Virus record (IMG/VR): IMGVR_UViG_3300023174_000074
Span: 62,809-126,808 of that record
Length of the DNA: 64,000 nucleotides
DNA from: a virus
Direction: 5' to 3' (one strand)
Shown in pieces: positions 18,171 to 63,044 of this stretch. Both the position numbers and the translations under genes were made by a program. Position 1 is the stretch's first letter. Every line of letters begins with the position of its first letter. The notes beneath the pieces were generated by a model. It saw nothing but the letters and a program-made list of their open reading frames with translations, did no database searches and was not told the origin of the DNA.

Positions 18171-18401
18171 ATGAAAACTATAATCCACGTAAACCAACAC
18201 AACATCAAGGTCAATGCTAAGGGTGAAAATAAACCTGTTATCACATGCAAGACATATAAGACAAACACTTATGCAAACGAAGTCACGATATATGGACAGG
18301 ATGGACTCCCGGCTGCTAGGATAATCTACTCAAAAGATAAACCGCTCTCATGTGGTGCCAAAGTTTGGATAGAAACTTATGGCAAAGTGGAGACTAAATA
18401 A
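18171..18401 (+). CDS. Hypothetical phage protein
   Basis: IHVNQHNIK...YSKDKPLSCGAKVWIET. Confidence 0.65.
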   Translation: MKTIIHVNQHNIKVNAKGENKPVITCKTYKTNTYANEVTIYGQDGLPAARIIYSKDKPLSCGAKVWIETYGKVETK

Positions 18402-18405
18402 GAAG

Positions 18406-19008
18406 ATGAACAATTTTGACCTCATAAGAAAAATGTTAAGCTTCCCTGACGAGAACGCTTTCTACTTTCTTCAAATACTTAAAAGAAGAAAGGACAATCC
18501 TGATCTAGGGAAGGATATGATCCATATTGCGGACTACTATATCTATAGTCTGGAACAGTTCGATGGATTAAGGCAGAGAATTATACATCAATGCGACACA
18601 GAGAATGCCAGAGCATACTTTAGACTTAATCGTAGGGACTCTAAGAAGGTCGCTATGCAAGTTTTAAAGAGAACGGTAGATCATATTATGTCTGAAAATT
18701 ATCGTGCAGTTAAGAACGCCTTTGCGTCCTGTGCGGGTGAATTTAATTCAGATCCTGATAAGACTTGGATAGTTGATATAGATAATATTTCTATCGACAC
18801 TTTCAATCATTCTGGGGAACAAAAGAAAATTAGACAACTAGTATATGATCTTCAGGTTGACACTGGAAAGGAACCGATCATGAACATTATACCCACCAAA
18901 GGAGGTGTTCATATCATAACCAGACCATTCAATTTGGATAAATTTAAAACACAATACCCGGAAATAGATGTTCACCGGGATAATCCGACGATTTTATATT
19001 GCCCATGA
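18406..19008 (+). CDS. Hypothetical phage protein (possible AEP/primpol-like fold)
   Basis: FLQILKRRKDNP, WIVDID, PTKGGVHIITRPF. Confidence 0.55.
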   Translation: MNNFDLIRKMLSFPDENAFYFLQILKRRKDNPDLGKDMIHIADYYIYSLEQFDGLRQRIIHQCDTENARAYFRLNRRDSKKVAMQVLKRTVDHIMSENYRAVKNAFASCAGEFNSDPDKTWIVDIDNISIDTFNHSGEQKKIRQLVYDLQVDTGKEPIMNIIPTKGGVHIITRPFNLDKFKTQYPEIDVHRDNPTILYCP

Positions 19009-20450
19009 GTAAAGTTAAAAAAAAACCAATAATAGATTTAGAATCTCTTAACACGGATCAGAAGACAGCTTTTGAAGATTTAAGGGATTTCGTTTGTGAT
19101 AAGGGAGATGATAGCGTCTATGTGCTAAAAGGTTGGGCAGGAACAGGAAAGACCTATTGTGTGAGTGTGCTTGTCAGATATGTGCTCGAGGTGATACACC
19201 CGACACATAATTGGTATAGAATAGCAGTTACAGGACCAACCAATAAATCAGTGAGGGTTATTAAAAAAACCAGCGGGCTGAAAAATCCTAGGGTTTCGTT
19301 TCAAACCATTCATAAAATGCTTGGTCTAACCGAAAGGATAACCAAAGAAGGTGTACAGGAATTTGTTAATCAAGGGGATTTCCAACCAAAGATAAAGACG
19401 GTAAAGCTACTTATTATCGACGAGGTTTCGATGCTGAATGATGATCTGTTTCAAGAAGTATTAAAATACAGAGACAAGATAAAAATTATCTGCATGGGAG
19501 ATCCTGCACAGATTCCCCCTGTAGGTAAACCCGATTGTATTCCTTTTAGAGAAGAGCTTGCTGCAGGCTATAGAATTAAAACTCTTAGTCTAAAACAGAT
19601 CATGCGTCAGAAGAAAGATAATGCTATTATCGAATCATCTGTGGCTATTAGATCTGAATTAGGTAGAGCTAAAAATCCAGTTGAACCCGTTACAAAGCTA
19701 AATGAGAAAGGTGAAGGAATAGAATTTCTTAATCTCAATATTCCTGAGACAAGAAAAGGATTCTCAGAAATACTGAGACGATATTTTGTCACCGATGAAT
19801 TTAAAAAAGATTCTGAGTATGCAAAGATCATTGCATGGAGAAATAAAACTGTTGCAACCATGAATGATGTTATTCGTAAAGTTATCTACGGAGACGAAGC
19901 ATTAGGATCAAAGATATTGGTTGGGGAAAAACTAATCGCAAACAATCCGATCATTCAAGGTGAGTCAATAGTTCTGAACACCAACGACGAATTCAGTGTG
20001 GATAGTTTTACTATCGGTAGCGATGATCTTAGATATCACATATCAGATCAACCCGATGCCGAACCATTTCCAATAACACTAAAGTATTATGAAACTGTTG
20101 TTAGCTATCTTGATGATGAGGATGAAACGGTAAGGGTTAACATACAAATTCTACACGAGGACAGCGAGATGGATTTTAAAAAGCTGGCTAATATTCTAAA
20201 GCTTAGAGCTATAGAAAAGAAAGGCAAAGATAAAAGCTGGATAGTGTACTACAACTTTCTTAGAAAGTATGCTGATGTGAATTATGCTTATTGCACTAGC
20301 GCACACAAATCACAGGGAAGCACATACAATACAACATTTGTTCTGGAGGATGACATAAATCAAAATTTTAATATAATTGAAAAAAATAGAATACTTTATA
20401 CCTCCTATACTAGAGCCAGTAGAAAGCTGTATGTACTTAGAAGATTTTAG
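19005..20450 (+). CDS. Dda/RecD-like SF1 DNA helicase
   Basis: GWAGTGKT, PTNK, TIHK, IIDEVSM, GDPAQIPPV, HKSQGSTY, YTRA. Confidence 0.9.
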   Translation: MSKVKKKPIIDLESLNTDQKTAFEDLRDFVCDKGDDSVYVLKGWAGTGKTYCVSVLVRYVLEVIHPTHNWYRIAVTGPTNKSVRVIKKTSGLKNPRVSFQTIHKMLGLTERITKEGVQEFVNQGDFQPKIKTVKLLIIDEVSMLNDDLFQEVLKYRDKIKIICMGDPAQIPPVGKPDCIPFREELAAGYRIKTLSLKQIMRQKKDNAIIESSVAIRSELGRAKNPVEPVTKLNEKGEGIEFLNLNIPETRKGFSEILRRYFVTDEFKKDSEYAKIIAWRNKTVATMNDVIRKVIYGDEALGSKILVGEKLIANNPIIQGESIVLNTNDEFSVDSFTIGSDDLRYHISDQPDAEPFPITLKYYETVVSYLDDEDETVRVNIQILHEDSEMDFKKLANILKLRAIEKKGKDKSWIVYYNFLRKYADVNYAYCTSAHKSQGSTYNTTFVLEDDINQNFNIIEKNRILYTSYTRASRKLYVLRRF

Positions 20451-21616
20451 AATCTACCCAAACTCCATCCGTCACTAATATATTTATCGATTTCTTGCAC
20501 ATCAACCCTAACTGATTTTTTTGATTTATTTATCCATTTTTTACCCCTTGATGAATTTCCCATGCCTTTTCGACTTTCGTCAGTGATATTTAACTTATCT
20601 TTATCAACGATTCTTCCCAAACACCATCCCTGACATATCCATTTTTCTAGTTGGTCAGCCTTAACCTTTTTATTTTTATCAAAGCAATTATTTATCCAGA
20701 TGGTATTTTTATGAACATTGCTCATTTTTAATTTAGCATCCGTTGATCTTTTCATCCCCTTACTTACGTGTCTCAATTCTCCAGATTCCAATCTAGGATC
20801 ATCTATTTTAACCCTCATTCCGTTACCGCTAACATCTTTAACTGGTATTGTTCCCTTAGTAACACCCTGTAATTCACCGGATATAAATCGAGGATCATTT
20901 CGATCCAATATTAAATTTTTGCCTCCATCCTTAACAACTACTTTATGTGTAAATTTATGAATTAGCTCACCACTTTTTAATCTTGGATCGTCGGTTTTTA
21001 TTCTTATGTTATTACCATTTTTATCATTTACACATACTGTTCCTTTTATTATACCTGTCATTTTTTCATTTTTGAATTCGTCCTTATTAACATAACGAAT
21101 AATTCCATTTTTATCCCTTCCTACAGCATTGTTACAATGTATACTTTTTAGATCACCATTAAGATAATTAGGATCATCGGTTGAAACCTGTTGGGTCTTT
21201 CCCTCCCCGTCCTTAACAGTAACATATCCTGTTGATATAAATATTAATTCTCCGCTTAAGTACTCTGGATTATTAACTGAGGTCTGAAACGTATCCCCTT
21301 TTTTATTTCTAACCGTGACAACTCCACAGCTTCCCCCTCCACCACCACCTAAAGTGATATTATATACATTTTCATTTAATATAAATTCGTTACTTACTAG
21401 TTCTTTTTCTTTTTCTAACATTTTATTTCTACTATCAAAATCATACAATATAATTTTTTTAAATTTCTCTATTCCGTATTTTTTAATAGCTAGTTTAATT
21501 AATTTACCTGATCCCATATAGTTATCATTAATATTATATGTGGAATGACACCCAATATAGATTTTACTATTTACTAGATTTAATATTAAATAAATCAGAT
21601 GATGTTTTTTCGCCAT
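20447..21616 (-). CDS. GIY-YIG (Seg-like) homing endonuclease
   Basis: LIYLILNLVNSKIYIGCH, YMGSG, E, YN; repeated DDPRLxSGEL modules. Confidence 0.85.
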   Translation of the reverse strand: MAKKHHLIYLILNLVNSKIYIGCHSTYNINDNYMGSGKLIKLAIKKYGIEKFKKIILYDFDSRNKMLEKEKELVSNEFILNENVYNITLGGGGGGSCGVVTVRNKKGDTFQTSVNNPEYLSGELIFISTGYVTVKDGEGKTQQVSTDDPNYLNGDLKSIHCNNAVGRDKNGIIRYVNKDEFKNEKMTGIIKGTVCVNDKNGNNIRIKTDDPRLKSGELIHKFTHKVVVKDGGKNLILDRNDPRFISGELQGVTKGTIPVKDVSGNGMRVKIDDPRLESGELRHVSKGMKRSTDAKLKMSNVHKNTIWINNCFDKNKKVKADQLEKWICQGWCLGRIVDKDKLNITDESRKGMGNSSRGKKWINKSKKSVRVDVQEIDKYISDGWSLGRF

Positions 21617-21651: not shown

Positions 21652-21713
21652 AGAATCGAATATACAGCCTACACCAGGCGAGTAAGAAAGTTTACGTCAT
21701 GAGAAGATTCTAG
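21652..21713 (+). pseudogene. Orphan duplicate of the helicase 3' end
   Basis: Reads RIEYTAYTR-SKKVYVMRRF* versus helicase end RILYTSYTRASRKLYVLRRF*. Confidence 0.75.
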
Positions 21714-22504
21714 TAGCTTTCTCTGATACGGATAAACTTGCAGTCAAGAAATTCCTCGATAGCCTTTTGTCTTAGTCTATCCTTTTCTTTTAATTCGTCA
21801 TTTATATAGTGGTATTTTTCGTCCCATTCATAAACTGTGTTATTTTCTTTATCATATCCATCTACCCAATATCCAAGTTCTTTAACGTGAAATTCACACC
21901 CGTTTTCTGCGTGTTGAATTCTAATCCCGGTTTCTTCCATTAGCTTATTAAAGTACTCGCAGCCTTTTTTGCTATATGGAGGATGGAATTTTTTATCGAT
22001 TGCTTTAAGCTTATCAATAAAAATTACTCTTAGCTTTTTCCTAGTCTCCTCGTTATGGTGTTTCCCGAATTTAGTATCTCTTAATGAATTTTCCCAATTA
22101 GTTCTATGCTCATCACTCATCTTCTTTCCTTTATTCCATGGCGTGCTTGATCCCCATTCGGTATCTTTAATCCCATTCTTCCAATTGCTCTTATATTCTT
22201 CACTCATTGGCTTACCCTTATTCCAAGGTTCATATCCTTCCTTGTGTACATAAGCCCAGCCCACAGCATTTGGTTGAACTTTCTTGCTGCAGCTTTTACC
22301 GCAATGTTCTCTGTATCCCTTAGCTATATTATTAAATGAAGCTTCCCTATCACACTGCTTGCATTTTATCTTCTCCCCATTTAAAACGTATTGATCATAA
22401 TAATCCTTGGTATCTATTTTATGGTTCTGTTTTATGTGACTTCCGAATCCGTTATTTGACTTTGTTTCGAATCCGCATATCTTACATTTCTTGATATCTT
22501 CCAT
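21710..22504 (-). CDS. Putative homing endonuclease (Zn finger, PWNKG/NUMOD3 repeats, PD-(D/E)xK-like domain)
   Basis: CKIC..H..H, PWNKGK twice, YWVDGYDKENNTVYEWDEKYH, FIRIRE. Confidence 0.7.
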   Translation of the reverse strand: MEDIKKCKICGFETKSNNGFGSHIKQNHKIDTKDYYDQYVLNGEKIKCKQCDREASFNNIAKGYREHCGKSCSKKVQPNAVGWAYVHKEGYEPWNKGKPMSEEYKSNWKNGIKDTEWGSSTPWNKGKKMSDEHRTNWENSLRDTKFGKHHNEETRKKLRVIFIDKLKAIDKKFHPPYSKKGCEYFNKLMEETGIRIQHAENGCEFHVKELGYWVDGYDKENNTVYEWDEKYHYINDELKEKDRLRQKAIEEFLDCKFIRIRESY

Positions 22505-22540
22505 GACTGTGCATAAACTTTAAAGTATATATCATTTTAT

Positions 22541-22571
22541 TTTTTATTCCCGGGTCTGATTCTTATATTTG
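22541..22571 (+). promoter_or_regulatory. Promoter upstream of the cassette array (CG-N11-TATATTTG)
   Basis: TTTTTATTCCCG-GGTCTGATTCT-TATATTTG. Confidence 0.65.
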
Positions 22572-22772
22572 TAATATAAAATATGGAATATGGAAAAAAT
22601 AGAAACATTAAAAGAAGAACTAATTCATTTAGTAGAAACGGCAATTCAATTCGGTGTTGATTTTGTTGATGTTGTAAAGGTCAAACCATCTGAGAGAAAA
22701 AGGACCGCAAACCGGATGGTTGAAAACACAATCAAAGATTTAGAAAACCCAAAACAAATTAATGATTGAACC

Positions 22773-22859
22773 TAACGGTTGGGTATATGTGAAGTACCTT
22801 ACCACAAAACTTAAAAATTAAATAGAAACTTTAGGAGGTATTTCACATATACCTTGTTA
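22773..22859. repeat. attC-like site 1
   Basis: TAACGGTT; arms GGTATATGTGAAGTACCT / AGGTATTTCACATATACC; TTGTTA. Confidence 0.8.
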
Positions 22860-22874
22860 TAACTCGTTTTAATT

Positions 22875-23117
22875 ATGACTCGATTTGAAAGAAAAAACAG
22901 AACTGAAATAGTTTATAAAGGATTCGGTGGTATTACCGATGCTTTTGACGATATGTATAAACAACTTTGGAGAATAAATGATGAAGAATATAATTATTTA
23001 TGTGAAACACTTACTGATGAAGAATTGAGTGATATTACGCCAGAATTTAAAACTATATCTCAAATAAAAAAAGCGATAACAATAGTAAATACGGCTCTTT
23101 CTAAAAATGAGTTATAA
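22875..23117 (+). CDS. Cassette 1 hypothetical protein
   Basis: Stop codon is the TAA of the next TAAC. Confidence 0.65.
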   Translation: MTRFERKNRTEIVYKGFGGITDAFDDMYKQLWRINDEEYNYLCETLTDEELSDITPEFKTISQIKKAITIVNTALSKNEL

Positions 23118-23203
23118 CGGTTGAGTGTATGTGTAGGTTTTTTGAAATTAAACTTTAATATATACTAAAAACTAAATAAAAAACTTACATATACACCTTG
23201 TTA
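23115..23203. repeat. attC-like site 2
   Basis: Arms GTGTATGTGTAGGTTTTT / AAAAACTTACATATACAC. Confidence 0.8.
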
Positions 23204-23257
23204 TGTGCCGTTTTTTCTTATGGACTTCAAATTATTAATTTTTAAAATAAACAAAAT

Positions 23258-24325
23258 ATGAATTTAGCAAGTGTACAAAAAGTAATCAAATTAACCCCAA
23301 TTGAGGGTGCAGATTTGATAGAAACAGCAACCGTATTAGGTTGGGAAATTGTAGTAAAAAAAGGCGAATACAAAGTGGGTGACTTATGTAGTTACATTCA
23401 GATTGATACAGTAGTTCCCGAACTACCCGAATATGAATTTTTAAGGGAACGGAAATTTAGAGTAAGAACAATCAAATTGCGTAAACAAATTTCGCAGGGG
23501 CTTGTAGTTCCTTTACCTAATGGTAAATGGAAAGAAGGCGATGATATTACAGAGGTTTTGGGAGTAAAGAAATACGAGAAGCCAGACAATAACCCAGAAC
23601 GCTATGAGAAGCCAAGAATGTCTAAAAAATGGTATAAGAAATGGATTTACTTGTTTAAATATAATTTCCTTTTCAAGTTGTTCCCAAAATTACAAAGGTT
23701 AAGCCGTTCTCCATTCCCTAAAAATTTGGTATCAATTACCGATGAAGAAAGAATACAAAATATACCACATGTATTACAACAATACGCTGGTAAATTATTT
23801 GTAGTAAGCTATAAACTTGATGGTAGTAGTATTACAATAATTCATTCAAAGGTTTTTGGTAAAAGTAAGTTTAGAATTTGCAGTAGAAGATTTGAATTGC
23901 ACGACAAAAAAAATGATTGGTACAAAGTATTTACTGATACTAATTTTAAATATGAAATTGCAAAACTTGTAAAGCACTTTAAAACTGATGATATAATTGT
24001 ACAAGGCGAAGCAATAGGCAAATTTAACGGCAACCACCACAACTTACAAAAAGAGCAAATTAGGTTGTTTAATATCAATGTAAACGGCAAAAGATTAAAC
24101 CAACAGGAATTTATAAAAACTTGTTTGGCAAATAATATTCCACATTGCCCAATGTATAAGGAAATTGTTTTAAATCACTCTTTACCCGAAATATTGGCTT
24201 TGTCTGAAATTAAAGACGTGATTAATCCATCAGTAGATGTTGAGGGTTTAGTTTGGCGTTGCGTTGAAGATAATTTAAGTTTCAAAGTGATAAACAATAA
24301 ATATCTTCTTAAAAACAATGAGTAA
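23258..24325 (+). CDS. Cassette 2: RNA ligase, Rnl2/DRB0094-like
   Basis: LASVQKV...IEGADLIE, SQGL, TDEERIQN, KLDGSS, QGE, EGLV, SFKVINNKYLLK. Confidence 0.85.
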   Translation: MNLASVQKVIKLTPIEGADLIETATVLGWEIVVKKGEYKVGDLCSYIQIDTVVPELPEYEFLRERKFRVRTIKLRKQISQGLVVPLPNGKWKEGDDITEVLGVKKYEKPDNNPERYEKPRMSKKWYKKWIYLFKYNFLFKLFPKLQRLSRSPFPKNLVSITDEERIQNIPHVLQQYAGKLFVVSYKLDGSSITIIHSKVFGKSKFRICSRRFELHDKKNDWYKVFTDTNFKYEIAKLVKHFKTDDIIVQGEAIGKFNGNHHNLQKEQIRLFNINVNGKRLNQQEFIKTCLANNIPHCPMYKEIVLNHSLPEILALSEIKDVINPSVDVEGLVWRCVEDNLSFKVINNKYLLKNNE

Positions 24326-24349
24326 CGGGGTGTTTCCTAAAATGGCACA

Positions 24350-24397
24350 TAACGGTTGAGTGTAAAAAATCGTTTTAATGTTTTTTACACTTTGTTA
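24350..24397. repeat. attC-like site 3 (shortest, 48 nt)
   Basis: Arms GTGTAAAAAA / TTTTTTACAC. Confidence 0.75.
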
Positions 24398-24425
24398 TAA
24401 GTATGTAAAACAAAAATTATACAAT

Positions 24426-24593
24426 ATGAAAGAAAAAATTGAAAATAGGTTAAAAGAGTTATATGATGAATACAAACATGTAACTGATAAAGATAGAGTT
24501 TGGATTAAACAAACAGGTGGTTTAACAAGAAGAGAACGAATTGAAAAATGTAAAATTCTAATAGAAGAGTTAGAAACATTATTAAATTCATAA
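24426..24593 (+). CDS. Cassette 3 hypothetical protein
   Basis: Likely start MKEKIE at 24426. Confidence 0.55.
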   Translation: MKEKIENRLKELYDEYKHVTDKDRVWIKQTGGLTRRERIEKCKILIEELETLLNS

Positions 24594-24611
24594 TTTTTGT
24601 TTTATTACTTA

Positions 24612-24728
24612 TAACGGTCACAGATATATGTAGTTGTTTAACACAAAACTTAAATAATATGAATAAAGATAAAAATTTAGAACAAAACTTGGATAAGAGT
24701 AATAAAAAATTACATATATCTGATGTTA
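24612..24728. repeat. attC-like site 4
   Basis: Arms CAGATATATGTA / TACATATATCTG. Confidence 0.8.
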
Positions 24729-24931
24729 GTTGTAGTATTGATGATATTAAAAAATGGGTTGATAGTGAAATTGGTTACTATGACGAATGTGATACTGTTG
24801 AAGATGCGATTGATGATATGTTACATGATTTCAAAACACATTTTTTAAATATTGATTACACAAAGAAATTTGATAAGGAAAACGAACTTATAAAATACTT
24901 CAAAAGTGAGTGGGAACAATATTACAACTAA
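24659..24931 (+). CDS. Cassette 4 hypothetical protein
   Basis: ATG within hairpin loop; stop is TAA of TAAC. Confidence 0.65.
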   Translation: MNKDKNLEQNLDKSNKKLHISDVSCSIDDIKKWVDSEIGYYDECDTVEDAIDDMLHDFKTHFLNIDYTKKFDKENELIKYFKSEWEQYYN

Positions 24932-25054
24932 CGGTTTGCAGATAGGCGAAGGCAAGGATTTAGAAAACAAAAATTTAACTTTAAAATAGAATTTAATATG
25001 AAAAAGAAATCATCATTTTACCACAACACCCTTGCTTTTGCTTATGTGCTGTTA
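24929..25054. repeat. attC-like site 5
   Basis: Arms GCAGATAGGCGAAGGCAAGG / CCTTGCTTTTGCTTATGTGC. Confidence 0.8.
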
Positions 25055-25183
25055 GTTGCAGTTTTTTTGTGGGTGGCAATTTCAAGCACCATTCAAAGGT
25101 TCAAATGTGCTAAACTTACTGAAACAGAAATATTTATTAGAATACCAAAGTCTTTTGTGTGCGATTGGGCAAATTGCAACTAA
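24998..25183 (+). CDS. Cassette 5 small membrane protein
   Basis: One hydrophobic segment; ATG in loop; stop at TAAC. Confidence 0.6.
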   Translation: MKKKSSFYHNTLAFAYVLLVAVFLWVAISSTIQRFKCAKLTETEIFIRIPKSFVCDWANCN

Positions 25184-25305
25184 CGGTTGATGCTTGGTGC
25201 AGTTGCGAAATTGAACGATAAACTTAATTAAAAAACGGAAACATGAATTGGATTAAAAATATTTTTAGAAAACGGAAACAAGCAATTGCATCCAAGCATT
25301 TGTTA
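25181..25305. repeat. attC-like site 6
   Basis: Arms ATGCTTGGTGCAGTTGC / GCAATTGCATCCAAGCAT. Confidence 0.8.
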
Positions 25306-25503
25306 GCGGCTGGGCTGGAGTTTAGACGAACATCTCTTGGTCAAGCTGCATTTATTCCGAAAGGCACAACAAGTAATTATGCTGATAAAATAATGTTCCC
25401 CGACAATTGGAGTAGAGCAGAATTTAGAGCAATGGCAGATTACATGGATGCGTTTCCTGACTGCACATTATTTTCAGATGGAAGTGGTAAGCCTTGCCGC
25501 TAA
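25243..25503 (+). CDS. Cassette 6 hypothetical protein
   Basis: ATG in loop; stop at TAAC. Confidence 0.65.
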   Translation: MNWIKNIFRKRKQAIASKHLLAAGLEFRRTSLGQAAFIPKGTTSNYADKIMFPDNWSRAEFRAMADYMDAFPDCTLFSDGSGKPCR

Positions 25504-25625
25504 CGGTTGGGTATAAATGAAGTGCCGATTTTGAAAAACAAATGTTCAATTAAAAACAAAAGATAAAATGGAAAACAAAAGTTCAATTACAGACGAAAGT
25601 AAGGCATTGCAACAAGCCGATGTTA
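25501..25625. repeat. attC-like site 7 (mismatched arms)
   Basis: TAACGGTT and ATGTTA borders intact; only GTGCC/GGCAT pair well. Confidence 0.65.
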
Positions 25626-25813
25626 GCAGCAGTGCGAGGTATATAATTGTTGATGAAAGCGTTTCAGCACATTGTTGTTTTGAATGCACAATAATTGATA
25701 CCGCAGCAGGTAAAGAAGCTTATGGTGATTACTGGAAGCGTTCAATGTGCGAAACATTCGACAGGGCAGAAGCTGAAATTATATGTGATGCGCTCAATAA
25801 GCATTTCTGCTAA
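25568..25813 (+). CDS. Cassette 7 hypothetical protein
   Basis: SVSAHCCFECTIID; ATG in loop; stop at TAAC. Confidence 0.65.
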   Translation: MENKSSITDESKALQQADVSSSARYIIVDESVSAHCCFECTIIDTAAGKEAYGDYWKRSMCETFDRAEAEIICDALNKHFC

Positions 25814-25898
25814 CGATTTCGGGCTTGGCGAAGTGCCGCTACTCGAAACTTGAATTTTAGCACTAACTGTCCTGCGGCATTTTGCCAAACCCGTGTTA
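25811..25898. repeat. attC-like site 8
   Basis: Arms CGGGCTTGGCGAAGTGCCGC / GCGGCATTTTGCCAAACCCG. Confidence 0.8.
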
Positions 25899-25946
25899 TG
25901 GGATAGTTTTAAAAACCTTTTAGGGTGGGCATTTAAAAACGAAATA

Positions 25947-26405
25947 ATGATAATAGCGATTGATTTTGATGGAACTTGCGTAACACACGAATTTCCAAAA
26001 GTGGGCAAAGACATTGGTGCTGTGCCTGTATTAAAAGAGTTGGTTAAAAATAACCACCAATTAGTTTTGTTTACAATGCGAAGCGACATAGTTAATCCAA
26101 CGGGAGAGGACAATGAATTGCACCTTGAAAGCGGAAACTATTTAACTGATGCAATTGATTGGTTTAAACAAAACGAAATACCACTTTACGGAATACAAAC
26201 CAACCCGATACAGCACACTTGGACTACAAGCCCGAAAGCATACGCACAACTTTACATTGATGATGCTGCTTTAGGATGCCCACTTTTGGTTGACATTGTA
26301 AAAGATGGTGACGAAAGTATTAAGCAAGTTGGCAGACCTTATGTTAATTGGGAAAAGGTAAAAGAAATGCTAATTGATAAAGGGATTATTGATGATGAAG
26401 ACTAA
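25947..26405 (+). CDS. Cassette 8: HAD-family phosphatase (BT0820-like)
   Basis: IAIDFDGT, LFTMR, PKAYAQLYIDD. Confidence 0.75.
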   Translation: MIIAIDFDGTCVTHEFPKVGKDIGAVPVLKELVKNNHQLVLFTMRSDIVNPTGEDNELHLESGNYLTDAIDWFKQNEIPLYGIQTNPIQHTWTTSPKAYAQLYIDDAALGCPLLVDIVKDGDESIKQVGRPYVNWEKVKEMLIDKGIIDDED

Positions 26406-26440
26406 CCCGTGCGGTGGGAAAAGGTTTTTAAAATTTCCCA

Positions 26441-26567
26441 TAACGTTTTGCAGCTATGCCCAGTTGGGCAATTTTAAAGACAAAATAATCAACTTAAAAT
26501 AAAGTAAATATGGAACACGAAAATATTAACAAACAAGAAGATGCCCAATTGGGTATAGGTGGTGTTA
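26441..26567. repeat. attC-like site 9
   Basis: Arms CAGCTATGCCCAGTTGGGCA / TGCCCAATTGGGTATAGGTG. Confidence 0.8.
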
Positions 26568-26722
26568 GCATCAGTGCCTTAACGGAATGGCTTAAAAGCG
26601 AATCTGTTTATACAGCATTGAGGTACGCATCAAAGAACCCATCAAATAGCGGTATGGATAATTGTGAAGATAAAAGTTATTTACATCTATACAATTTAAT
26701 TTGTCAGATTCGTAGGCATTGA
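26510..26722 (+). CDS. Cassette 9 hypothetical protein
   Basis: ATG in loop; ends 4 nt before TAAC. Confidence 0.6.
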   Translation: MEHENINKQEDAQLGIGGVSISALTEWLKSESVYTALRYASKNPSNSGMDNCEDKSYLHLYNLICQIRRH

Positions 26723-26725
26723 TGC

Positions 26726-26805
26726 TAACGGTTGCGGATATGAGAAGGGAAAAAATACCAATGAAAAATAAACAAGAATTTTTTACTTTCTTATATCCGT
26801 TGTTA
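26726..26805. repeat. attC-like site 10
   Basis: Arms CGGATATGAGAAGGGAAAAAAT / ATTTTTTACTTTCTTATATCCG. Confidence 0.8.
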
Positions 26806-26871
26806 TCGGTCTGGTTTGGTTTCAATTTTTGTGCTGAGGGTTTAGAATTTCATCATTAAATAAATATACAA

Positions 26872-27135
26872 ATGGAAAACAATAATTGCATAGTAGAGAA
26901 AAAATTTCTGTTCTGGAAATGGAAAGCGGTGGAGCATCATTACAAGATGCACCGAATAAGTAAATTCATGGATTGCTCAACATCATTCCATGTTGATTGG
27001 GTATGTAAGTGCGGGGCAAGGTGGGAACAGAAATTTGTTGAACAGGACGAATTATTGTTGAAAGGAATATCAACTGAAATTCTAAATAAGATTGACGGTT
27101 GGCATTCGCACTACTGCGGGAAGGAAAAAAATTGA
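26872..27135 (+). CDS. Cassette 10 hypothetical protein
   Basis: 87 aa ORF between sites 10 and 11. Confidence 0.6.
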   Translation: MENNNCIVEKKFLFWKWKAVEHHYKMHRISKFMDCSTSFHVDWVCKCGARWEQKFVEQDELLLKGISTEILNKIDGWHSHYCGKEKN

Positions 27136-27150
27136 AACCAAACTTGCCGA

Positions 27151-27276
27151 TAACGTTCCAAGTATTGCCGATGGTGGGGCATTACACCACCAAAGTTCAA
27201 TTAACAAACTAAAGTTCAAAATATGCACACAGATTCAAAAAAGCACGAAACCCCCACTATTGGCAATACTTTGTTA
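27151..27276. repeat. attC-like site 11
   Basis: Arms AAGTATTGCCGATGGTGGGG / CCCCACTATTGGCAATACTT. Confidence 0.8.
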
Positions 27277-27513
27277 TATGCTGTTAAAAATGGGCAGTTG
27301 AAAAGGTGGTTTTACGAGTTTAAACACGGACACCCATTTCTACTTGACGAAGAAGCTACTATAATTGTTTCTACAAGATTAAGTGATAAAAGTGCTTCTT
27401 GGATGAATGATGAACAGATTAAAGAACTCGTAAAACTTAGAGTGAAAGCAATGTATAAAAAGAAATTTCCAAATGCAAAACGGTGGTCGTTGCCCATTTT
27501 TAATTGCATATAA
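27223..27513 (+). CDS. Cassette 11 hypothetical protein
   Basis: ATG in loop; stop at TAAC. Confidence 0.65.
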   Translation: MHTDSKKHETPTIGNTLLYAVKNGQLKRWFYEFKHGHPFLLDEEATIIVSTRLSDKSASWMNDEQIKELVKLRVKAMYKKKFPNAKRWSLPIFNCI

Positions 27514-27637
27514 CGGTTGAGGATTTATTTAGTTGCGAATAAAAAATTACAAAATATGATAACAGAAGAACAGTTGAAAAAAGCAGAAAAAGTTATTGCT
27601 GACTACAAAGCCGAGCAATTGAATAAATCCTATGTTA
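27511..27637. repeat. attC-like site 12
   Basis: Arms AGGATTTATTTAGTTGC / GCAATTGAATAAATCCT. Confidence 0.8.
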
Positions 27638-27792
27638 TAAAATCGTTTCCGAGCGATGATGAAATACATAAGGAATCGTTGAGGGTGTGCAGGATAGAGG
27701 CAGAGTTTGTGCAAGGGGTAGCGTGGTGCTATCACGATAAAGGAGCAAAATGGATGATGGAAGAACTAAAGAAGCGAGGAAATGTTTTATAA
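27556..27792 (+). CDS. Cassette 12 hypothetical protein
   Basis: Start MITEEQ in loop; stop at TAAC. Confidence 0.65.
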   Translation: MITEEQLKKAEKVIADYKAEQLNKSYVIKSFPSDDEIHKESLRVCRIEAEFVQGVAWCYHDKGAKWMMEELKKRGNVL

Positions 27793-27878
27793 CGGTTTTG
27801 GTGTATGAGAAGGTTTGCTTAGATAAATTTTCAAATTACAACTGAACTTAACAGCAAACTTTCTTATACACCTTGTTA
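27790..27878. repeat. attC-like site 13
   Basis: Arms GGTGTATGAGAAGGTTTGCT / AGCAAACTTTCTTATACACC. Confidence 0.8.
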
Positions 27879-27942
27879 TACACAGTGCGGTTTATTTGGT
27901 AGAAACTTTAATTAAAAAACAAATATAAAAAAATTAAAAATT

Positions 27943-28320
27943 ATGAAAAATTATTTATTGACAGATTTTAATACTGAAAGATGGAAAGGTATTAATATAG
28001 AAAGTGCAGAAACACAAGTAGAAAAATTGAATGAAAAAATTAATAAAATTGGATGTTTATTTGGTGAAATAGGGAATCCAGAAACATTTGAGATTTCGTT
28101 ATCAAGAGCATCACATTCAATTAAAAATTTAACTTTTGTAGATGGTAAAGTTTATGGTGATGTTGAATTTTTGAATAATGATAACGGAAAACAAGCAGAC
28201 AATTTTATTAATAATATGAATTGTATATTTGGAATAAGAAGCACAGGAACATCAGAACAATATAAAGATGGTGAAATAGTTATCCATTCAATTTTTACTT
28301 GGGATGTAATCAATGACTAA
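27943..28320 (+). CDS. Cassette 13: degenerate T4 gp21-like prohead protease homolog
   Basis: FGEIGNP, ISLSRASHSIKNL, VYGDVEFL, NGK, FGIRSTG resemble gp21 GELxHP/VSH/GxSSRG. Confidence 0.55.
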   Translation: MKNYLLTDFNTERWKGINIESAETQVEKLNEKINKIGCLFGEIGNPETFEISLSRASHSIKNLTFVDGKVYGDVEFLNNDNGKQADNFINNMNCIFGIRSTGTSEQYKDGEIVIHSIFTWDVIND

Positions 28321-28367
28321 TAATTTTTAATTTTTATTAGATGAACTTGATTAGAAGTAGAAATGTA

Positions 28368-28400
28368 GCATTGTGTATAACTATTATATATAAGTAAGTG
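28368..28400. other. Putative attI-like site
   Basis: Last TAAC (28378-28381) closes cassette 13, has no following hairpin and abuts the recombinase start. Confidence 0.5.
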
Positions 28401-29228
28401 TACCATAAACCATTTAATATCAACACTTTGAATCAAAAAATTATAAAGATTTGTGAGGAAAAGTTTATATATTTAAACTACTCACCAAGAACAAAAGACA
28501 ATTATATGTGTCATATTAAAGATTTTCTTAATACTCTTAATGACAAACAGATAATTCATTGTAGTTCCAAAGATTTTCAATCATATCTAGATAATTATCA
28601 ATTCACCTCTGTTTCTCAACAAAACCAGGTTATTAACGCTATTAGATTTCTGTATAAGTACGGACTTGATAAGAAATACGATAAGGTATCGTTTAAAAGA
28701 CCAAAATCGGAAAAGAAGCTACCCAGAGTTATTGATGGTGAATTTATAAAAGAAAAACTAAACAAGATTGGTAATCTGAAACACAAAGCAATCTTAACAC
28801 TAACCTATTCAGTTGGATTAAGGGTGTCTGAAATAGTTAATCTAAAGATTGAAGATATTGACTCAAAAAGGATGCTTATACACATCAAAAACGCAAAAGG
28901 CAGAAAGGATAGGATAGTTCCGCTGTCATTAACTGTTTTAACTTTGCTAAGAGAATATTTTAAAGAGTATAAACCTTCAGATTATCTTTTTAATGGGCAA
29001 AATTCTTCATTGTATTCAATACGAAGCTGTCAGCAAATTTATAAAAAATACATTGATGACGGGTCATCAATACATACACTAAGGCATTCCTCTTTCACCA
29101 ACCTATTAGAATCAGGAACTGATCTAAGGATTATTCAAAAAATAGCAGGTCATTCCAGCTCTAAAACAACAGAAATTTACACACACGTCTCAAATAGTCT
29201 TTTAAGTAGGATAAAACTTCCAATTTAA
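28398..29228 (+). CDS. Tyrosine recombinase, integron-integrase-like (start uncertain)
   Basis: YSPRTKDNY, SQQNQVINAIRFLY, KKLPRV, GLRVSE, KGRKDR, HTLRH, GHSS, TEIYTHV. Confidence 0.92.
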   Translation: MYHKPFNINTLNQKIIKICEEKFIYLNYSPRTKDNYMCHIKDFLNTLNDKQIIHCSSKDFQSYLDNYQFTSVSQQNQVINAIRFLYKYGLDKKYDKVSFKRPKSEKKLPRVIDGEFIKEKLNKIGNLKHKAILTLTYSVGLRVSEIVNLKIEDIDSKRMLIHIKNAKGRKDRIVPLSLTVLTLLREYFKEYKPSDYLFNGQNSSLYSIRSCQQIYKKYIDDGSSIHTLRHSSFTNLLESGTDLRIIQKIAGHSSSKTTEIYTHVSNSLLSRIKLPI

Positions 29229-29753: not shown

Positions 29754-30078
29754 AGGCGAAGATCGAAGATGGTATGCTGATCTTCCGGAGTATATTGCTC
29801 AAGGAGGAACAGAGGAGGAGTGCGAGATGGTAGCAGGAGCTGATGATTGGCTGGATTTCATTTCAGAAAACAGAGAAGCTGTTACATTAGCTTTATCGGA
29901 TCAGGATTCGCTAACAGAGAAAATAGTTCTATACGAGAGTGACGAATCCGGAGCTACTTACATAGCTCACACTTTCAAGGGGGAAGATATTAACCAAATA
30001 CTTTGGCTTTGCTCAGTTACAGTTTTTGTATTTGGTCATTACCCAAAAGAAATATATTATCGCGTAATAAGAGAATGA
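29734..30078 (+). CDS. Hypothetical phage protein
   Basis: RWYADLPE, EMVAGAD, WLCSVTVFVFG. Confidence 0.6.
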   Translation: MVIRFYKGEDRRWYADLPEYIAQGGTEEECEMVAGADDWLDFISENREAVTLALSDQDSLTEKIVLYESDESGATYIAHTFKGEDINQILWLCSVTVFVFGHYPKEIYYRVIRE

Positions 30079-31214
30079 AATACGATTTAAACACATTAAA
30101 TGACTATATTGAGCGTGGACTTCTGATCAAGAATTCTCACCCAACTCTGCCTATAGACATCTATAACTATTCTAGAGATTGCCAATTTTCGCAATTGTGG
30201 GATGAAATCACGTTAAATATGAGGGGTACGGTTTTAGATCGTGAGGGTAACATTGTGGCTAGATCTTTTCCTAAGTTCTTCAACATGGAAGAGCATAAGC
30301 CGGAGGAAATTCCAAATGAGGAGTTTGAAGTGTTCGAAAAAATGGACGGATCATTAGTAATTCTTTTCCACTATGAGAGCGAATGGCATTTGGCTACCAG
30401 AGGATCTTTCGTTTCTGAGCAGGCAATAAGGGGTAAAGAAATCCTAAAAAAATACAGATATGAGAGACTGATCCCAGGATTTACCTATCTGTTCGAGATC
30501 ATCTATCCCGAAAACAGGATCGTGTGCAACTATGACTATGAGGACTTAATACTTCTTGGGGTAATTGATAACAAAGATGGTTATGAACTTAGAATCCACC
30601 ATAATAGCATACATTTAGAGGGTATTAGATTTGTTAATATGTACAACAATCTAGGATTTAAGATTGTTAAAAAATACGATGGTGTTCAGGATTACAAGCA
30701 ACTGAAATCTATTATCGAGAATAATGCAGAAGGATTTGTAATCAAATTCAAATCTGGATTCAGAATGAAGATTAAAGGGGAGGAGTACGTCAGGTTACAT
30801 AGGTTGATAACAAACTTCTCAAACGTTGATATCTGGGAGCTGTTAAAAGACGGAAAGAATGTCGACGAGTTTCTAGATAGAGTTCCTGATGAATTTGATA
30901 AATGGGTTAAGAGAACGATTCGTGATTTAAAGTACAGTAAATACGCAATTGGTGAGAGAGCAGGTAAGGTCCACGATTACTTTAGATATGGTAAATACAG
31001 TGACCGCGAAACAGAGCCTACTAAAAAAGAGTTTGCCGAGCATCTAGAATTTTGTAAGGTTGAGCCAAGCATAAGATCTATATGTTTTGCAATGTGGGAT
31101 AGAAAGGACTATGATCACATTATATGGAAAATGCTAAAGCCAAAATATCAAAAACCTTTCTGGAATAAGGAAGAAGAAATTCCAACAGATTCAAAATGGA
31201 TTAAAAAAGATTAA
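30075..31214 (+). CDS. T4 Rnl1-like RNA ligase
   Basis: IYNYS, RG, FPKFFN, EKMDGS, ATRGSF, FEII, EGFVI, KIKGEEY. Confidence 0.88.
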   Translation: MKYDLNTLNDYIERGLLIKNSHPTLPIDIYNYSRDCQFSQLWDEITLNMRGTVLDREGNIVARSFPKFFNMEEHKPEEIPNEEFEVFEKMDGSLVILFHYESEWHLATRGSFVSEQAIRGKEILKKYRYERLIPGFTYLFEIIYPENRIVCNYDYEDLILLGVIDNKDGYELRIHHNSIHLEGIRFVNMYNNLGFKIVKKYDGVQDYKQLKSIIENNAEGFVIKFKSGFRMKIKGEEYVRLHRLITNFSNVDIWELLKDGKNVDEFLDRVPDEFDKWVKRTIRDLKYSKYAIGERAGKVHDYFRYGKYSDRETEPTKKEFAEHLEFCKVEPSIRSICFAMWDRKDYDHIIWKMLKPKYQKPFWNKEEEIPTDSKWIKKD

Positions 31215-62588: not shown

Positions 62589-63044
62589 ATGATGAAATTT
62601 ATTAGAACCTTTGATGATTACGAGAATCAAATGGTGCCAACCAGCTTTAAAGTTAGCAAACCAGGGGTGGAAAATATTGCGGATCAATTTCTAAGAGATC
62701 TAGGAAAAAACTACGATCTAAGAGTTGGTAAAGAGTTCGATAAGAAGAAAGGTAACTGTGCTTGGTATGTTCAGGAGTTTTATCAATGGTGTGAAAATAA
62801 CAGAACCCCAGTTAGAATAGTTTACTTTCCTGAGACAGAGAAAGCTAAAGACCCACATATAGCAATCATAGTTGATGATCTTGTACTCGATTTTGCTCAC
62901 AAGCAGTTTTCTAAAGACAAAAATGAAAAATACTCAGTTCTACCACTGAAGGCTTATAAGAAGTATGGATATTCGGATAAGATGGAGGTTTTAGATGAAG
63001 TTCCTAGTTGGATTGGTGATATCTATCCGGCGGATAAAAAATAA
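62589..63044 (+). CDS. Putative virion protein, possible papain/transglutaminase-like fold
   Basis: GNC...H...D arrangement; MKFIRTFDDYE leader. Confidence 0.5.
   Translation: MMKFIRTFDDYENQMVPTSFKVSKPGVENIADQFLRDLGKNYDLRVGKEFDKKKGNCAWYVQEFYQWCENNRTPVRIVYFPETEKAKDPHIAIIVDDLVLDFAHKQFSKDKNEKYSVLPLKAYKKYGYSDKMEVLDEVPSWIGDIYPADKK

Follow-up and report, generated by a model that had tools for sequence, protein, structure and literature searches.

Why should every gene of a viral array be framed by complementary ends of its own, shared with no neighbouring gene? The question is raised by a stretch of 64,000 nucleotides (nt) of viral DNA, hereafter the window (positions 62,809 to 126,808 of the 126.8-kb IMG/VR virus record IMGVR_UViG_3300023174_000074), which contains 13 hairpin sites on the + strand (22773-27878), alternating with small gene modules and followed by a tyrosine recombinase gene. 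Each site starts with TAAC (at 22773, 23115, 24350, 24612, 24929, 25181, 25501, 25811, 26441, 26726, 27151, 27511 and 27790) and ends with GTTA (at 22856, 23200, 24394, 24725, 25051, 25302, 25622, 25895, 26564, 26802, 27273, 27634 and 27875). The sequence running from GTTA is here called armA, and the sequence ending at the following TAAC is called armB. The array probably serves a large T4-like lake phage as an integron-like platform for cassettes, whose paired ends would fill in the R arm of a folded dif-like site, with T-G wobbles as strand markers.

In all 13 modules of the window, armA is complementary to the armB of its own module. Ungapped scores of the cognate pairs range from 8 to 18 with a mean of 11.2, against a mean of 4.8 and a maximum of 8 for the 169 non-cognate combinations. 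The comparison with shuffled ends suggested by the initial annotation of this DNA favoured the cognate pairs, whose summed score of 145 was reached by none of 100,000 permutations of the pairing (largest permuted sum 115). The same annotation had reported complementary ends of 14-29 nt in every module, and both the stem lengths and the four examples it quoted proved correct. Every one of the 13 modules likewise has the recurring G-T pair to which it drew attention; nine have it at position 11 (modules 1, 2, 4, 5, 6, 7, 9, 11 and 13), and in the remaining four it lies behind a bulge of 1-2 nt (modules 3, 8, 10 and 12).

All arms lie on the + strand. The first attC-like hairpin (TAAC...GTTA, 22773-22859) forms cassette 1 with the gene downstream of it; armA of module 1 (22856-22870) pairs with an armB at 23104-23118 that has TAAC at its end, the TAA being the stop codon of the open reading frame (ORF). 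Module 2, the RNA ligase cassette, has its arms at 23200-23214 and 24339-24353, and module 3 has a 27-nt armA at 24394-24420, with a 1-nt bulge ahead of the G, facing 24590-24615. The armA of module 4 (24725-24740) lies within the ORF and its armB (24917-24932) forms the final codons. Modules 5 (25051-25064 and 25171-25184), 6 (25302-25316 and 25490-25504) and 7 (25622-25635 and 25801-25814) follow, module 6 showing a T.T opposition at position 10 just before its G-T pair. Longer arms are found in module 8 (27 nt, 25895-25921, with 26419-26444), module 10 (29 nt, 26802-26830, with 27127-27154) and module 11 (24 nt, 27273-27296, with 27491-27514), the last belonging to a cassette (27151-27514) which has a homologue over its whole length in another locus, L050. 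The arms of module 9 are at 26564-26579 and 26714-26729, those of module 12 at 27634-27650 and 27778-27793, and those of module 13 at 27875-27888 and 28368-28381, where armB is joined via TAAC to a conserved attI-like sequence. Both arms fall within the ORF in seven of the 13 modules, and armB overlaps the end of the ORF in ten.

The pairing extends to related arrays. A scan of viral contigs for relatives of the recombinase found 216, and 80 IMG/VR loci were kept; L081-L083, which are the window itself, and L018, L019, L024 and L062, apparent duplicates with identical site coordinates, were dropped before counting, leaving 284 consecutive site pairs. The hairpin detector was simple and strand-symmetric, scanned both strands alike and missed weak hairpins. 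A perfect cognate match of at least 8 nt was observed in 195 of the 284 consecutive pairs and in 121 of 2537 non-cognate ones, while the two ends of one and the same array-state hairpin match over at least 8 nt in just 10 of 355 cases. Among the 89 failing pairs, 45 hide a hairpin missed by the detector that does have a cognate end (2 of 89 in the control). The paired ends are therefore conserved in homologous arrays; the initial annotation had named a lack of such conservation as part of what would speak against it.

The length of the cognate match peaks at exactly 10 nt (124 pairs) and no match is perfect beyond that. Position 11 of armB is T in all 195 matching pairs and always faces a G of armA, directly in 144, after one extra base in 49 and after two in 2. 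Ungapped counts per position show that pairing is high up to position 15 (144-164 of 195) and then falls to about 40%. A gapped measure of stem length, which gave a cognate mode of 15 nt and 89 of 195 stems of at least 20 nt, was set aside on account of its noisy non-cognate control (75 of 195 at 14 nt or more). The middle six positions of the arm (N6) take 77 distinct sequences among the 195 pairs, and covariation is also seen within a homologous gene pair (L005_3807 and L075_7040), which differs by a compensatory change at two positions. Finally, one-sided differences at positions 9-11 leave a wobble on the + strand in 184 cases and on the - strand in one. The arms are thus under ongoing selection for pairing of the + strand and are not decaying relics.

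What the ends build becomes apparent when they are aligned with the hairpins. Over 358 sites, the 11 nt ending at TAA (the R arm) read A (297), T (342), K, N5, T, A, A, and the 3' half of the hairpin (the L arm) reads A (252), T (353), K, N5, T (301), A (353); the latter pattern is followed by 6 nt ending in T-G and then by TTA-N6-G. In the folded strand, a pair of 11-nt arms (ATK-N5-TA(A)) consequently stand in inverted orientation; 6 nt separate them on the 3' strand, and on the 5' strand of the core there are mostly three further unpaired bases. Two spacer classes, (4,1) with 171 sites and (5,1) with 92, account for 263 of the 358. The T at position 2 of the L arm faces G in 267 sites and A in 18, and about 68 are in a register shifted by one bulged base. 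In published dif sites a 6-bp centre lies between arms of 11 bp (PMC3089051, Table I), and the right-hand arm of Vibrio cholerae dif1, as printed in the same source, fits A-T-T-N5-T-A-A on the complementary strand when compared by eye. The dif-type layout of two inverted 11-nt arms around a 6-nt centre is found here in folded form, as measured on the 3' strand. The outer stem described by the initial annotation would accordingly be the R arm of a folded dif-like core whose inner (L) arm comes from the hairpin stem, and its G-T pair is one of two symmetric wobbles, one in each arm.

The limits of the mobile unit were traced by comparing 281 modules, among which 20 homologous pairs were recognised. 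Ten of these share their array context and have both hairpins identical. In seven others, six of them independent, the gene shares its upstream hairpin but not its downstream one, with identities of, for example, 1.00 vs 0.49, 1.00 vs 0.53 and 0.96 vs 0.69; of the rest, two show 0.98 vs 1.00 and one is low on both sides. Followed base by base in five informative pairs, identity is limited by the TAAC(G) of the upstream and downstream hairpins. Homology between loci starts, at the integrase end, at TAAC 28378, and the assemblies of other lake metagenomes have contig breaks or partner switches at TAAC 23115 (seen in three runs from three studies), 25811, 22772 and 28375; joints with a side shorter than 30 letters were left unused as possible repeats, and contigs by their nature cannot reveal circle junctions. 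Because the identity limits, the inter-locus homology and the contig breaks all sit at TAAC, these breakpoints show that a cassette consists of a hairpin and the gene downstream of it, and that strand exchange lies in the TAAC on the 5' flank of the hairpin, as read on the + (coding) strand. The opposite division, in which a gene would travel with its downstream hairpin and cross over at GTTA, was ruled out by the upstream hairpin travelling with the gene and by the TAAC breakpoints. The gene module of the initial annotation stands in so far as both arms belong to one cassette, but its boundary does not, the crossover being placed in TAAC, at the other end of the hairpin, and not at GTTA.

The last TAAC opens an attI-like junction (28378-28427, + strand), in which it is followed by a TAT-N-ATATATA block conserved in the family, and new cassettes appear to enter here, beside the integrase. 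The same TAAC and block were observed in about 50 loci, 30-50 nt ahead of the integrase start, and the junction may double as a promoter. An inverted second arm of the ATK-N5-TAA kind was sought by eye in this region and none was seen.

The strand bias of the system is pronounced. Of the hairpins detected across the window and the related loci, 389 are on the strand of the integrase and 11 on the opposite one. They lie mostly upstream of the integrase gene, with further ones downstream in a few loci such as L026. In that locus a second run of seven hairpin sites (18274-20559) is found about 8 kb downstream of the integrase, besides the upstream array. In the array state, the + strand gives the more stable fold in 12 of the 13 sites of the window. 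The expectation of the initial annotation that an excised circle would form a longer stem was borne out in silico: when the cassettes were circularised, the mean folding free energy of the + strand was -25.8 kcal/mol with cognate ends, compared with -15.9 in the array state and -15.8 with non-cognate ends, and the circularised sites reached a mean of -21.2 on the - strand. For 12 of 13 cassettes the cognate end gave a lower energy than any of the 13 alternatives; only cassette 7, which has a weak inner hairpin, did not follow.

The enzyme expected to act on these sites is encoded directly after the last TAAC and on the same strand. The gene (28428-29228, +) lies in a frame open from 28398, with TTG at 28428 as the likely start, and its product of 266-276 amino acids has Pfam integrase and SAM-like domains. 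It stays below the cut-off of every NCBIfam model, the best being XerA_Arch with 176 bits (cut-off 220), followed by IntI TIGR02249 with 145 (265), XerC with 142 (335) and XerD with 141 (330). The IntI profile is matched at positions 3-205 and 255-312, leaving 206-254 unmatched, and a BLASTP alignment with IntI1 (27% identity) places gaps of 31 and 12 residues, 43 in total, opposite IntI1 residues of about 204-250. By these measures the recombinase is Xer-like and lacks the insertion that defines integron integrases (the I2 helix). That insertion is called essential for integron function and is described as the reader of extrahelical bases (PMC8138268, PMC7790495).

These elements can be joined into a single mechanism. 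A cassette runs in the order C-hairpin-GTTA-armA-gene-armB-TAA, with strand exchange in TAAC. The + strand would fold into a pseudo-symmetric core whose L arm comes from the hairpin stem and whose R arm comes from the pairing of armB with armA, which reaches position 15 or so and in some cases 29. As armA and armB sit at opposite ends of the cassette, the R arm would be complete in two states only: in the excised circle, or as a gene-spanning stem in a fully single-stranded array. The hairpin of the array state could pair only at TAAC/GTTA and at positions 11-12. The recombinase would bind each arm and cut TAA|C on the + strand, much as IntI cuts at AA|C on the bottom strand (PMC5027507). Since T-G wobbles exist only in the folded + strand, they may mark the right strand and the right arm for the recombinase, a role comparable to that of the extrahelical bases and the I2 helix in canonical integrons, and the G would keep the complementary strand from presenting the invariant T and hence a valid arm. 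A control of directionality, as suggested by the initial annotation, is a conceivable further role. Excision would start either because the conserved positions suffice or through use of the gene-spanning stem.

Several observations weigh against this mechanism or leave part of it uncovered. Binding, cleavage and the cassette circles are deduced from sequence alone, and 44 of the 284 neighbouring pairs have no cognate end by the criteria used. One cassette, L022_7963, has a non-cognate armA. Pairing continues beyond position 15 in about half of the cassettes, which is more than an 11-nt arm needs, and in the array state the R arm pairs over just 4-6 nt (mean prefix 4.9), which counts against the mechanism at the start of excision. 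The hairpin detector accepts G-T as a pair and favours wobbles on whichever strand is scanned, even if both strands are treated alike. Lastly, the folded strand is also the mRNA strand, and sequence by itself cannot separate pairing in RNA from pairing in DNA.

The start of excision is where the strongest competing explanation applies. In it, the gene-spanning stem is the working substrate within the array, forming a full R arm flanked by two hairpins, and excision takes place at these junctions; it is compatible with the mechanism above as regards the circle and differs only in how excision begins. The minimum-free-energy fold of 3.6 kb of the array + strand contains a gene-spanning cognate stem in five of ten modules (8-15 of the first 15 pairs), and closes the local TAAC/GTTA in only two of ten hairpins. 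Moreover, local R pairing in the array state is no better than chance, with a mean prefix of 4.9 against 5.0. The fold is, however, a thermodynamic prediction which needs 130-1150 nt of uninterrupted single strand, and the five modules with short stems do not form the stem at all. Furthermore, no three-way junction acting as the substrate of a tyrosine recombinase was found in the part of the literature covered. The suggestion of the initial annotation that the gene module folds as a second substrate thus finds a matching predicted stem in half of the modules, and as an account of excision it is unlikely, albeit worth keeping in view.

A second explanation places the pairing in RNA, where it would tie the 5' end of each cassette mRNA to its 3' end for the control of stability or translation, the link with recombination being incidental. 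The folding strand is indeed the sense strand of all 13 cassette genes, the wobbles would become G-U pairs, and stems of up to 29 nt run through untranslated regions. Against this, the stem always begins at the crossover core, with the invariant T-G at a fixed distance from it; the 11-nt motif and its wobble recur inverted in the inner arm with dif-like spacing; and the cassette breakpoints coincide with the base of the stem. A role confined to RNA is, in the light of these features, improbable.

Classical recombination of double-stranded dif-like sites, for which the hairpin potential would be irrelevant, fares worse. It can draw on the 3' half of each site, which is a contiguous 11-6-11 arrangement (L arm, 6 nt, armA), and on a recombinase without the domain that is linked to single-strand recombination in IntI. 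Yet this contiguous arrangement sits at GTTA while the breakpoints sit at TAAC, where the spacing in duplex form is 9 nt, and a duplex site has no need of complementary ends particular to each cassette or of wobbles biased to one strand, which makes this explanation highly improbable. Least credible of all is that the arms are a neutral relic of cassette birth with no present function: a cassette born from an ancestral contiguous hairpin cut in its stem at the crossover would start with complementary ends, but the 77 paired middles, the compensatory double change, the 184:1 strand bias of the wobbles and the keeping of both arms within coding sequence in 7 of 13 modules tell of ongoing selection and contradict the "trace of how cassettes are made" that the initial annotation had envisaged.

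The preferred reading, a folded dif-like site completed by the cassette ends, invites comparison with canonical integrons. The attC site of integrons is a bottom-strand hairpin with an R box of RYYYAAC/GTTRRRY that is cleaved between A and C (PMC5027507). The two systems share hairpin arrays with an AAC/GTT core beside a tyrosine recombinase and an attI-like junction; in both, one strand folds better, and the AAC that is cleaved in integrons, and predicted to be cleaved in the phage, is on the 5' side of that folded strand (for integrons as described in PMC5027507). Site ends of the type AAC...GTT are conserved in both, with variable sequence and conserved structure between them, and the cassette ends are cognate and rebuild the site in the circle (in the phage, 13 of 13 modules of the window, and 195 of 284 pairs plus 45 recovered in related arrays). 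The integron mode of recombining a folded single strand, with replication resolving the product, would have indirect support in the phage from the strand-biased wobbles. The differences are equally distinct. The phage genes point towards the attI-like junction and the integrase and are preceded by their hairpin, whereas in integrons the gene is followed by attC and reads away. The folded strand is the coding strand in the phage, and the inner stem is continuous, without extrahelical bases but with fixed T-G wobbles in both arms. The central loop is asymmetric, mostly 4-5 vs 1-2 nt, unlike the symmetric integron spacer of 5-6 nt; the pairing reaches about 15 nt and not 12; and the recombinase has no IntI insertion.

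The limit of 12 nt comes from a control of 12 class 1 cassettes on nine of ten PLSDB plasmid stretches (L084-L093), a small and clinical sample. The tenth, L091, which repeats the dfrA14 cassette, was left out, as were cmlA5/cmlA8, aac(3)-VIa, linG, VIM-2 and the aadA1 copy in L093, for which a start or an attC could not be located; only sites with classical ends were kept, the rest, including the ends of psp, estX and dfrA5, being read by eye. None of 14 control genomes contained an integron integrase above cut-off, and for this reason they provided no canonical array. A relaxed attC finder, accepting any AAC...GTT with a fold, was also tried and rejected, as most of what it returned were false sites within GC-rich genes. 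A perfect cognate match of 12 nt was found in four of the 12 cassettes (aadB, aadA2, qacL and psp), one of 9 nt in qnrVC1 and one of 8 nt in aac(6')-IIa, dfrA14, dfrA5 and estX. In aadA1 and aadA22 the match spans 4 nt and 10 of the first 12 positions, both differences being bottom-strand wobbles, and in the aac(6')-Ib cassette it spans 3 nt. No cassette of the 12 matches beyond 12 nt and none shows a conserved wobble. According to the initial annotation, the match in canonical cassettes is confined to the 7-nt R box; in this small sample that does not apply, nine of 12 matching over 8-12 nt. The part of the literature covered was found to contain no statement on pairing past the 7-bp R box. 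These matches suggest an R arm of about 11 bp (11 bp and a G) at work in excised integron cassettes, longer than the textbook 7-bp R box.

Closer parallels for an enzyme without the I2 helix are offered by Xer systems. In the CTX phage, Xer recombinases use a folded single-stranded site with a single strand exchange (PMC3089051, PMC3442271). As described in these sources, CTX attP(+) resembles the present sites in having a Xer-type enzyme without the I2 helix, a folded-strand site, and 11-nt arms around a partly unpaired centre, with one pair of strands exchanged and replication completing the process. It differs in relying on the host XerC and XerD, in having one site per phage genome and in integrating the whole phage, while the phage studied here encodes a single recombinase of its own, together with a cassette array and a site split across the cassette ends. 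The dif sites of Xer enzymes, those of systems with a single recombinase such as XerA included, share the 11-6-11 layout with arms ending in TAA beside the centre, and XerA is the best NCBIfam model; dif is, however, one duplex site per replicon used in dimer resolution, the phage recombinase falls below every Xer cut-off, and the phage arms have T-G wobbles and a middle of 5-6 nt peculiar to each cassette. The dif modules of Acinetobacter are also genes bounded by inverted Xer-type arms and shuffled between replicons, but their pdif sites are 28-bp duplexes served by the host XerCD (PMC13141974, PMC7399989). They are set apart here by description and not by sequence: in the parts available, the accounts in PMC13141974 and PMC7399989 mention no hairpins, cassette-specific complementary ends or adjacent dedicated recombinase.

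That cassette ends are cognate is known to follow from the geometry of integron cassettes. The apparently new features are the length of the pairing, the invariant and mirrored T-G wobbles, the dif-like layout and the lack of the I2 helix in the recombinase of a phage family that is widespread. More tentatively, and with rather less confidence than the mechanism itself commands, it can be proposed that this freshwater phage family runs a second, independently built integron, in which a Xer-type enzyme acts without the I2 helix, two T-G wobbles replace the extrahelical bases, and the R arm is halved across the cassette ends, giving a full site only after excision. If this were true, cassettes would be easy to insert and hard to lose, and the system would represent a living intermediate between Xer/dif and integrons. 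The origin of the use of folded single strands by integron integrases is an open question that has been tied to the gain of the I2 helix (PMC7790495). A natural system, found in no fewer than 216 viral contigs, seems to work on folded sites in the absence of this helix, and the anatomy of its sites is precise enough to be tested with a handful of point mutations. A megablast search of 16 kb around the array against deposited phages gave no match, and no description of this phage system was found in the full-text literature covered, which was partial; the nearest paper deals with canonical attC clusters in phages (PMC9892861).

The genes around the array are T4-like in type, including GIY-YIG and NUMOD3 endonucleases, a Dda-type helicase and RNA ligases. 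All 13 cassette genes are read towards the integrase. Cassette 2 encodes an RNA ligase (23258-24325) with PHA02142 OB-fold and RNA_ligase domains, and a second RNA ligase, of the T4 Rnl1 type, is located outside the array at 30003-31214. In seven of the 13 cassettes (within 22875-27792), the stop codon is the TAA of the TAAC core. The ORF begins in the loop of its own hairpin in seven of 13, and the protein consequently reads through the L arm, GTTA and armA.

At the left end of the array, a small gene (22590-22772) adjoins a NUMOD3 endonuclease gene (21710-22504, - strand). It has a proper armB (ATTGAACCTAAC) at its end and neither a hairpin nor an armA upstream, its end is the same as that of cassette L004_1583, and it looks like a truncated oldest cassette. 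Among the related arrays, the gene of L022 7963 is 99% identical to that of L021 1597, but the L022 copy has the armA of another cassette, possibly as a result of an exchange at or near GTTA or of homologous recombination in a near-identical hairpin. Metagenome contigs of other lake studies (runs X3, X4, X6 and X8) cover parts of the array over 22500-28600, with breaks or switches at hairpins. In one X8 contig the leftmost gene is joined to module 4 with about 107 other letters in between, which points to another order of cassettes in the population concerned.

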